Of a DNA stretch of 64,000 nucleotides, positions 3,861 through 8,563 are shown piece by piece. Both the position numbers and the translations under genes were made by a program. The number at the start of each line of letters is the position of its first letter. Positions within the stretch are counted from its first letter, which is position 1. Below the pieces are notes generated by a model. It saw only the letters and a list, made by a program, of their open reading frames with translations, did no database searches and was not told the origin of the DNA. The stretch comes from Escherichia coli (GTDB lineage Bacteria > Pseudomonadota > Gammaproteobacteria > Enterobacterales > Enterobacteriaceae), in the NCBI RefSeq assembly GCF_051903065.1, contig NZ_CP178438.1; one strand, written 5' to 3'.

Positions 3861-3936
3861 TCCTCTGTAGTTCAGTCGGTAGAACGGCGGACTGTTAATC
3901 CGTATGTCACTGGTTCGAGTCCAGTCAGAGGAGCCA
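3861..3936 (+). tRNA. asnV: tRNA-Asn (anticodon GTT)
   Basis: Identical 76-nt tRNA-Asn sequence to the copy at 1452-1527. Confidence 0.93.
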
Positions 3937-6079: not shown

Positions 6080-6823
6080 TTATAGCAGTGCCAGCAGGAA
6101 GACCAGTTCACCAAGCTCTATAGCAGCTCCCAGCGTATCGCCGGTTTGCCCGCCCAGCGTACGTTTGAGAAGCTGACCGAGGATGAAAATCGCCACCATC
6201 GTCACCACCATAGCAGCCACACCATGCATACCCGGCAATAATACGGCAGCAAAAATAGCGGCTAAGCCGAGTGTGACGCAGGTTTGTCGCCCATCAATTT
6301 TGCCAATGAACACATTGCCAAGCCCTTCTTCCCGGGCATAACGATGACGATACATCAATAATGCGGCAGTCCCGCGGCTGACCGCACATGCTGCCGCCAG
6401 CGATGCAAGGATCGGTTCGCCACGCAGAGCCAACTCGCTTAACACCAGAATCTTTGCCAGTACAACAAAAATCAATGCCAGACCGCCGTGGGTGCCTAAA
6501 CGGCTATCACGCATGATTTCCAACATGCGATCGCGGCTACGTGCAGAAAATACACCATCACAGGTATCGGCGAGGCCGTCCAGGTGGAATCCCCCGGTCA
6601 TCAGCGCCAGCACAAGTACGCTAAACAGTGCCGCCAGTGGTACGCCACACCATGCCTGCAGCACCATGAAGACCAGCCCGCTAATCGCGCCAAGCAATAA
6701 TCCAATTAAAGGAAAAGTAATAATACCGCGAGAATAATGCTCGAAATCCAGTCCCTGGGACCAGCGACGCGGTACAGGCAGACGCGTAATAAATGAGAGC
6801 ATCGCCCAAAATAATTTACTCAT
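6080..6823 (-). CDS. cobS: Adenosylcobinamide-GDP ribazoletransferase (cobalamin synthase)
   Basis: Hydrophobic membrane protein [18 protein letters not shown]...; start overlaps the cobU stop (ATGA). Confidence 0.88.
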
Positions 6824-7365
6824 TTGATTTTTACTCCAATACCCGAAACCACCAGCCATACTTCATTAGCCGCAGCGGCCAGCTGCTGATTTACCCGCCC
6901 GGCAATATCACGAAAATGACGTGCCAGACGACTCTCCGGCACAATCCCCATTCCCACTTCGTTAGTCACTAATACAACCTTTGCGGGGCAACGTTGGCAG
7001 GCAGCAATCAACGACTGAATCTCAGCATTAATCGCCTGTTCCAGCGCCTGATAATCCCATTCATCAGGGTCTTTATCGCCGCCATAATCAAACAACAGAT
7101 TAGTCACCATTGTGGTAACGCATTCCAGCAACACAGCCTCATGCGGGTTAATGTCTGCATGAATTAATTGATCAAGATGTTGCCAGCGCTCCACTGTGTG
7201 CCAGTGCGCCGGGCGGCCTTGCCGATGATGTTCTATCCGTGCAGCCATCTCATCATCAAGGATTTGTGAGGTGGCGATATACAGAACCTGTGAAGAATCC
7301 CCAATAAGCGCCTCTGCATGGCGACTCTTCCCGCTCCGTGCGCCCCCCGTCACCAAAATCATCAT
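6820..7365 (-). CDS. cobU: Adenosylcobinamide kinase / adenosylcobinamide-phosphate guanylyltransferase
   Basis: 181-aa ORF with P-loop GGARSGKS; first gene of the cobUST unit. Confidence 0.9.
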
Positions 7366-7498
7366 ACCGACTCCTGATTCAATTGTATGATGGTATTCAT
7401 TGAACAGAACAATGGATCCCCCACCGTTGCTGACCGCAAAACATTTACGCGATTAATACTGCGCGTAATATAATTAAAAATCCAGCATTCTCAATCCA

Positions 7499-7858
7499 TT
7501 ACGAAAGAAGATGGCATTGTGGAATAGCCAGACTTCCTCGTGTTAACGTCCGACAAAATGCGTCATTGACAGCGGTTTCTCTGGAATGACAGATTTCATT
7601 CAGATAATGGATTAATGCTACAGCCCCACCAGCCGGACCAGTCAGTAAACGGGCATTGTGTTCTGCAATCAAAATTACCGTCGTTCCCTCAGAATGAGCG
7701 AGCCATTCTGGTACGGATATCTCGCTTTCAGCTGCTATCAATAGCTGCACTGAATAATCGCTATACGCATCTGATAATGATTGCACAGACCCACCGTTAA
7801 GAGGCTGGAAATCTTGCTGCCAGTCCTCACGGATAAAACCGCAGCCTCTACAGTGCAT
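7499..7858 (-). pseudogene. Unassigned 119-aa ORF in a degenerate region; possibly a remnant of the ancestral cbi/pdu locus, or spurious
   Basis: ORF with ATG start directly upstream of cobU on the same strand; no recognisable motif; in Salmonella this position holds cbiP. Confidence 0.25.
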
Positions 7859-8133
7859 TGTTGGTCAGTGCCTGCGAAGCAGACATTATCGCGCTGGTGC
7901 TTAATGCGGACGCACCGTGGTCACCTTTTTCGCCTGGCTTTATCTCGTCAATGAATCGTCCGATCATTGGAGTAGTCACCAAAGCAGATTTAGCCAGCAT
8001 GGAAGAAATATCTTTGGTGAAAGTTTGGTTACGGGAAGCTGGATCGCACAACGTGTTAGTAACCAGTGCGGTTAATAACAATAGAGTTGCAGAACTTTTT
8101 GCCTTGCTTCATACAGAAGATGTCTGTCGCTAA
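7837..8133 (+). pseudogene. EutP/PduV-family GTPase fragment (C-terminal part only, no P-loop)
   Basis: Translation ...[55 protein letters not shown]... resembles the EutP/PduV C-terminal half; the frame is closed by a TAA at 7834-7836, so the N-terminal Walker A region is missing. Confidence 0.5.
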
Positions 8134-8233
8134 TTTCGATAGGTTATCAGATGGGAATGATGACTGTGATACACAGAAAAGAATCAATGAGCAATGAGGG
8201 TTGCCGGGCAACCCTCATTGAATAAAACAGGAA

Positions 8234-8563
8234 TTACTTCGCTTCGCCGTTTTTCATTTCGCCCATAGCTTTCAGCTTCTTGGAGATATCGCGGCGTTCT
8301 TTGGAGAGCTCGGCATTTTTGATGATGTAATCGTCAACGCGATCTTCATAGTCACCTTTCATGCTAGCGATGATGCCCTGGATTGCTTCAACGCTCATCC
8401 CCGGCTTGATGTAATCACTCAGGTTGTCCAGCAACAGGACGCGCTTCTGGTTGTCACGGATCTTTTTCTCAACGTCCTGAATTTCACGTTGCAGTTTGTT
8501 CTTACGACGGAACAGACGAACAAATTCCAGTACGTCCTGGAATGAAGGCTTGGTAGTTTCCAT
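8234..8563 (-). CDS. yeeX: UPF0265/DUF496 family protein
   Basis: Internal ATG at 8561-8563 gives [38 protein letters not shown]... Confidence 0.85.

Follow-up and report, generated by a model that had tools for sequence, protein, structure and literature searches.

The compact cobU-tmaR interval of an Escherichia coli genome: a probable deletion scar of the pdu cluster

The short interval that separates cobU from tmaR (yeeX) in the Escherichia coli genome analysed here is very probably a non-functional scar left by deletion of the propanediol-utilization (pdu) cluster, and hence derived from a pdu-bearing state. It spans positions 7366-8233 (868 bp) of the window, that is, of the whole 64-kb stretch of DNA that was analysed, and it consists for the most part of two truncated genes, cbiG' and pduV', that are joined at a pentanucleotide. 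A preliminary description of this DNA had reported about 870 bp between the two genes, free of CP4-44 and IS elements, in agreement with what is found here. It had also suggested that the interval approximates the unoccupied ancestral site; that suggestion is abandoned in favor of a secondary deletion of 17,253 bp from a layout common to E. albertii and E. whittamii. The features of the region are as follows.

6820-7365, minus strand: cobU, intact, 181 aa (NF004469, 246 bits for a cut-off of 161, E 1.6e-73); left anchor
7467-7494, minus strand: match to a sigma-70-like promoter (TTGAGA-16-TATATT) in the gap from the cbiG' stop to the cobU start, from a consensus scan alone
7499-7858, minus strand: 119-aa ORF as called, containing the cbiG' remnant; its first 7 codons are antisense pduV
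7502-7837, minus strand: cbiG' pseudogene remnant, codons 34-145 of the 145-aa Escherichia cbiG' ORF (tblastn)
7835-7839, no strand: proposed deletion junction, AAAAC, 5-nt microhomology
7837-8133, plus strand: pduV pseudogene remnant, residues 50-147 of 147 and the stop codon (TIGR02528, BLASTP)
8192-8220, no strand: GC-rich hairpin with a 13-bp stem between the convergent pduV' and tmaR stops; likely terminator
8234-8563, minus strand: yeeX/tmaR, intact, 109 aa (NF003844, 197 bits; NF040881, 187 bits; E 4.7e-59); right anchor

The cobU gene is annotated likewise in NZ_CP083585, a record that is 100% identical, and tmaR is also recognized by RefSeq annotation. Region 7366-8233 as a whole shows 100% identity to E. 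coli strain ECNB21-M121. The 12.7-kb insert of K-12, which extends from IS5 to CP4-44, gave zero blastn matches across the 64-kb window, and the genes that would signal CP4-44 or the cobU island (agn43/flu, yeeR-S-T, cbeA/cbtA, IS5/IS2) are absent between cobU and tmaR. A cobU genomic island is listed for CFT073 (PMC3155842). Among the stop-to-stop frames of at least 25 aa in 7340-8260, those other than the two remnants had no NCBIfam match at E values up to 1. The expectation that an all-frame search would reveal similarity to CbiP and Pdu proteins was therefore borne out for PduV and not for CbiP, PduU, PduW or PduX, of which no remnant was seen among the NCBIfam-scanned frames.

On the plus strand, an open frame directly preceded by a TAA extends from 7837 to the stop codon at 8131-8133, and the C-terminal EutP/PduV-like fragment previously noticed there was confirmed. 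It matches the EutP/PduV model TIGR02528 over positions 56-141 of 142 with 76.3 bits (E 2.7e-21), below the cut-off of 138.35 bits for full-length members; the intact E. coli PduV covers positions 1-141 with 186.7 bits. Descent from pduV is established by BLASTP, in which the fragment is 93% identical to residues 50-147 of the intact E. coli protein. Residues 1-49, including the P-loop/G1 part, are carried by no other frame of the interval, and the P-loop of this family sits in the N-terminal third. RefSeq describes the fragment as 'incomplete; missing N-terminus'. Devoid of its nucleotide-binding third, PduV' is not expected to have any function, as judged from its sequence.

The 119-aa ORF of the minus strand had been left unassigned. 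It does exist, and it proves to be a truncated cbiG remnant. By tblastn, its portion from 7837 down to 7502 corresponds with 93% identity to residues 34-145 of the cbiG' ORF of the locus taken as pdu-bearing reference (E. coli NZ_CM148328, D7; hereafter L004). Protein alignment showed that the first 33 residues of the 144/145-aa form are missing and that seven unrelated residues, MHCRGCG, stand in their place; the ATG and first 7 codons (7838-7858) come from antisense pduV. The 145-aa parent ORF matches the CbiG model NF004463 over profile positions 1-126 of 351 (76.8 bits, E 1.7e-21). It also aligns with an authentic 357-aa CbiG from Pseudocitrobacter, itself scoring 615.7 bits on NF004463, over residues 7-125 with 42% identity (E 1e-22), and 13 of the first 14 residues are identical between the two. 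The window ORF alone reaches 18.1 bits (E 0.0012, profile positions 40-125), far from what a full-length CbiG of about 351 aa attains (more than 546 bits), yet its descent from cbiG is clear.

Pfam gave zero matches for the 119-aa ORF or its 145-aa parent, even at E 10, and the CbiG identity rests on the NCBIfam profile together with pairwise alignment. Two word-indexed homologue searches returned Escherichia and Shigella remnants alone and no full-length CbiG. An exhaustive search of 1.8 billion representative proteins gave 29 relatives, the largest of which, 358 aa long and 39% identical, has the size expected of a full CbiG. The relatives are thus few and distant, which indicates that the cbiG' stub is strongly diverged, old and decayed. 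The 144/145-aa form is present in many E. coli, in E. albertii, in E. marmotae and in cryptic-clade Escherichia. In RefSeq the 119-aa ORF is a hypothetical protein CDS, and its relatives are named 'cobalamin biosynthesis protein'.

The undeleted allele occupies 18.1 kb in pdu-bearing E. coli and is found in 638 of 5,426 complete genomes (~12%). It comprises, in order, cobT-cobS-cobU, cbiG' (145 aa), a cobalamin riboswitch, pocR, pduF, the divergent genes pduA to pduV and the convergent tmaR. The riboswitch (RF00174) scores 107.8 bits with Rfam in the pdu-bearing locus, and none was detected at the gathering threshold in the entire window. E. albertii has the same layout, from the pdu genes through pocR and cbiG' to cobS, and the run of pdu genes from pduV and pduU through pduA directly adjoins tmaR in E. 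whittamii, in E. albertii and in one more Escherichia species representative. Between E. coli and E. albertii, the dS of pocR, pduF and pduC is 0.36-0.49 with a dN/dS of 0.01-0.06. Such dS values are close to the usual divergence between these two species and are compatible with a long residence of the pdu cluster in the genus. In E. coli, pdu is variably present, with ~77% nucleotide identity to the pdu genes of LT2 (PMC9997745).

When compared with the pdu-bearing allele of E. coli and E. albertii, the window has the same flanks in the same orientation, with arms that are 97.3-97.6% identical, but relative to L004 it lacks a segment of 17,253 bp that contains the 5' end of cbiG', the riboswitch, pocR, pduF, pduA to pduU and the 5' end of pduV. 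In blastn against L004, the left arm of the window aligns as far as 20474 and the right arm from 37723 onward, with an overlap of 5 nt. Direct reading of the sequences places AAAAC at both ends of the undeleted allele (L004 20470-20474 and 37723-37727) and a single copy in the window (7835-7839), the arrangement that is expected of a microhomology-mediated deletion scar. At this point, cbiG' residues 34-145 (7837 to 7502, minus strand) abut PduV residues 50-147 (7837 to 8130, plus strand). Since no insertion could restore homologous ends that two genes lack, the compact junction was derived by deletion.

The shortness of the microhomology fits illegitimate recombination or replication slippage, and we propose the following course. 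The Escherichia ancestor would have carried the gene order of the pdu-bearing allele with the cbi enzymes already gone. In the lineage of this strain, one event of either kind between the two AAAAC pentamers would have removed 33 codons from the start of cbiG', the cbiA' leader, the riboswitch, pocR, pduF, pduA-pduU and 49 codons from the start of pduV, so that what was left of cbiG' became fused directly to what was left of pduV. The direct parent was an allele other than L004, as 3-4 bases just to the left of AAAAC differ (GGAT vs CAAC), and its microhomology could be slightly longer or shorter than 5 nt. The same junction as in the window is present in ST2747, which is 95% identical. This sharing may reflect a recurrent AAAAC deletion, or one old event followed by drift or recombination, and the three-taxon distances fit both. 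Homologous recombination could also move either allele between lineages by allelic replacement.

In K-12, the distance between cobU and tmaR is 13,267 bp, with IS5, IS2, agn43/flu and cbeA/cbtA inside, which is consistent with the IS elements and CP4-44 prophage (flu, cbtA/cbeA) that the preliminary description had given for this junction. K-12 shares with the window the same anchors and the same two remnants, since 7366-7670 lies beside cobU and 7951-8233 beside tmaR, on either side of the insert. Its remnants are nevertheless shorter (144 bp and 183 bp as annotated) and 13.3 kb apart, whereas those of the window are longer and fused at AAAAC. The idea that the interval would simply flank the CP4-44 insertion therefore holds for its two ends and fails for 7671-7950, a segment that includes the junction and is absent from K-12. 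The K-12 breakpoints fall at L004 20305 and 37839, with the IS elements and the island inserted between them. Lacking the junction and broken at other positions, K-12 is thus not the window allele with an insertion, and its layout amounts to more than a prophage in an empty site. In RefSeq, the K-12 fragment beside tmaR, yoeF, is named EutP/PduV family protein, and the remnant beside cobU is a 'cobalamin biosynthesis protein' pseudogene. Two other pieces of the K-12 insert were seen in passing: about 245 bp of unassigned sequence between the left cbiG' breakpoint and IS5 (L006 860-1104), and a transposase fragment just before the PduV' fragment.

Other compact alleles exist in the genus. The avian pathogenic strain APEC O78 resembles the window in being devoid of both pdu and island and in having a compact junction that arose by microhomology-mediated deletion. 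However, its junction measures 458 bp, its breakpoints are at L004 20188 and 37845 with a 7-nt microhomology (CGTCCGA), it is without any cbiG' and its pduV' is annotated over 177 bp, so that it represents an independent event. Among the 5,426 complete E. coli genomes, the exact scar of the window was found in 201 and the ~458-bp scar in about 329 (530 minus 201). The remaining genomes, a class judged from sampled rows, were broken at the K-12 positions in those rows, and in most complete E. coli genomes, as in K-12, an IS or island insert occupies the site. Further scars, each with other breakpoints, were observed in Escherichia sp. E1V33 and MOD1-EC7003. These differing breakpoints imply that pdu loss is recurrent; Escherichia has undergone no fewer than five independent losses, each with its own breakpoints.

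With respect to the cob-pdu block, the slot between tmaR and cobU is variable throughout the family, as illustrated by a TmaR scan that covered one genome per species and gave 80 loci. The cob-pdu supra-operon of Salmonella enterica and Citrobacter (cbiA-P cobUST, pocR, pduF, pduA-X) occupies the same tmaR-cobUST slot and encodes homologous PduV and CbiG. Its gene order is given in PMC5282855. In these genera a full cbi operon is present and pduW and pduX lie between pduV and tmaR, while in Escherichia pduV is the last gene of the pdu operon, at a distance of about 100 bp from tmaR (L004 37578-38121), and only the cbiA' and cbiG' stubs are left. The gap between tmaR and pduV is ~2.2 kb in Citrobacter, Salmonella, Phytobacter and Pseudocitrobacter vendiensis (L074), and in Salmonella diarizonae it encodes PduW, an acetate/propionate kinase of 404 aa, together with an ORF of 300 aa in the position of PduX (L053 10337-12981). 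The earlier proposal of a relic of the cbi-pdu region is upheld, this block being retained by Salmonella and Citrobacter between yeeX and cobU; in the Salmonella loci the genes that follow tmaR are pduX, pduW, pduV, pduU and so on. Pseudocitrobacter faecalis (L067) has a cbi operon with ten ORFs in cbiA-cbiJ positions, of which the family model confirmed CbiG alone, and no pdu genes in the 10 kb beside tmaR. A cbiG-like match at a comparable distance from tmaR was found in three more loci (L058, L060, L086). The loss of cob and pdu in E. coli was reportedly first discussed by Lawrence and Roth in 1995 and 1996.

One may still ask whether the compact junction comes close to the ancestral site before any occupation, with CP4-44 (in K-12) or pdu (in other strains) as a later arrival between cobU and yeeX. 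The interval is indeed short and without mobile elements, its two ends flank the insert in K-12, tmaR directly adjoins cobUST in Kluyvera, Trabulsiella and Kosakonia cowanii, and a study of ST372 reads the patchy distribution of pdu as multiple acquisitions (PMC9997745). This possibility is nonetheless very improbable, since pdu-bearing strains have, precisely at the break, both pduV codons 1-49 and the 33 codons missing from the start of cbiG', those 33 codons are homologous to true CbiG (13/14 of the first residues), the pdu-bearing layout is common to the sister species and K-12 is without 7671-7950 and the junction in it. The direction of change, from a pdu-bearing to a compact interval, follows from the truncation of the two genes and from the outgroups.

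Relative to the pdu-bearing allele, the codon changes of cbiG' are 8 nonsynonymous and 2 synonymous, and those of pduV' are 7 nonsynonymous and 6 synonymous, a sign of decay under relaxed constraint in both fragments. The dN/dS of cbiG' between E. coli and E. albertii (L004 20134-20571 vs L007 10001-10435) is 0.41, compared with 0.01-0.06 for adjacent genes, so that its constraint is relaxed, though its evolution is perhaps not fully neutral. About as improbable as an ancestral site is the view that the 119-aa ORF, the TTG-initiated PduV' ORF of 91 aa, or both, are functional small genes under selection: the 119-aa ORF is open and a RefSeq CDS, and its 144/145-aa parent is open in several Escherichia species with a dN/dS below 1, but its start and first 7 codons are antisense pduV created by the deletion, nonsynonymous changes prevail, the dN/dS is 7-40 times that of adjacent genes, K-12 and most E. 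coli retain 48 codons of cbiG' alone and APEC O78 none, no Pfam domain is found and PduV' has no P-loop. The cbiG' remnant covers about a quarter of CbiG and has a fortuitous new start; neither it nor pduV' can yield the original protein, the pathway of CbiG is absent and no function is expected. As the 119-aa ORF stays open and is called by RefSeq, a peptide may be expressed from it.

Under the deletion-scar reading, cobUST would be released from PocR and riboswitch control, and its transcription would depend on read-through or on a proximal promoter. The promoter match at 7494-7467 may drive cobUST after the loss of the riboswitch and pocR; the scan gave 1 site where 2.8 are expected by chance, and the match lies in the 305 bp that are also kept by K-12. 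At the other end, the hairpin at 8192-8220 is very stable, with a folding energy of -21.1 kcal/mol (z -4.2), and is conserved in every allele aligned, pdu-bearing and scar. It was not flagged by the terminator scan because it has no clean T-tract, and from its predicted fold it is likely a terminator retained from the pdu-bearing layout. The strain would not be able to build the Pdu microcompartment and is predicted to be unable to use 1,2-propanediol by way of it.

In L004 20134-20964, the riboswitch is followed by a conserved cbiA leader, a start codon and about 15 cbiA-like codons (MAASFSSFIAVPTGT vs CbiA MAAKHHAFILAGTGSG). The TGA of this 43-codon cbiA' ORF and the ATG of the 145-aa cbiG' ORF overlap (ATGA), and cobU begins 133 nt past cbiG'. 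The cbi enzymes are all lost and the regulated leader and two stubs are kept. It seems doubtful, although not to the same degree as the two alternatives above, that cbiA' (43 codons) and cbiG' (145 codons) were kept open as translated spacers carrying riboswitch and PocR control to cobUST. If they were, the deletion would not be neutral, and cobUST salvage would have been uncoupled from the sensing of B12 and propanediol repeatedly in E. coli.

The interval is an ordinary pseudogene scar at a locus already known as variable, with both remnants annotated in RefSeq, and its significance is small beyond annotation, in that a 119-aa 'hypothetical protein' and a PduV fragment are to be read as pseudogene remnants of a deleted pdu cluster. 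It does provide a tidy case of a large metabolic operon that E. coli has lost repeatedly through microhomology-mediated deletion. Distinct breakpoints could mark lineages and separate independent losses in pdu surveys of pathogenic and host-adapted E. coli.

Several observations concern the surroundings of the locus. An Rfam match to the STnc230 sRNA (74.8 bits) lies between pocR and pduF at L004 22028-22111. No cobT separates cobS from ldtA in E. albertii (L007 10435-11877) or in Escherichia sp. MOD1-EC7003 (L011 5352-7126); no cobU is called in the ~520-bp space left in E. albertii, and cobU of MOD1-EC7003 has an internal deletion. Some Escherichia lineages, even where they keep pdu, thus seem to be losing their cobalamin salvage genes to decay. 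Between E. coli and E. albertii, cobS and ldtA (L004 16627-19458; L007 10958-12812) have a dS of 1.0-1.3, compared with 0.1-0.5 for the adjacent pdu genes and pocR, and this unusually divergent cob/ldtA flank is possibly due to recombination with a distant allele. Finally, two tRNA-Asn (GTT) genes are located in the window at 1452-1527 and 3861-3936, 2.3 kb apart, upstream of ldtA-cobTSU; the asn tRNA cluster is a usual feature there and a known region of island integration.
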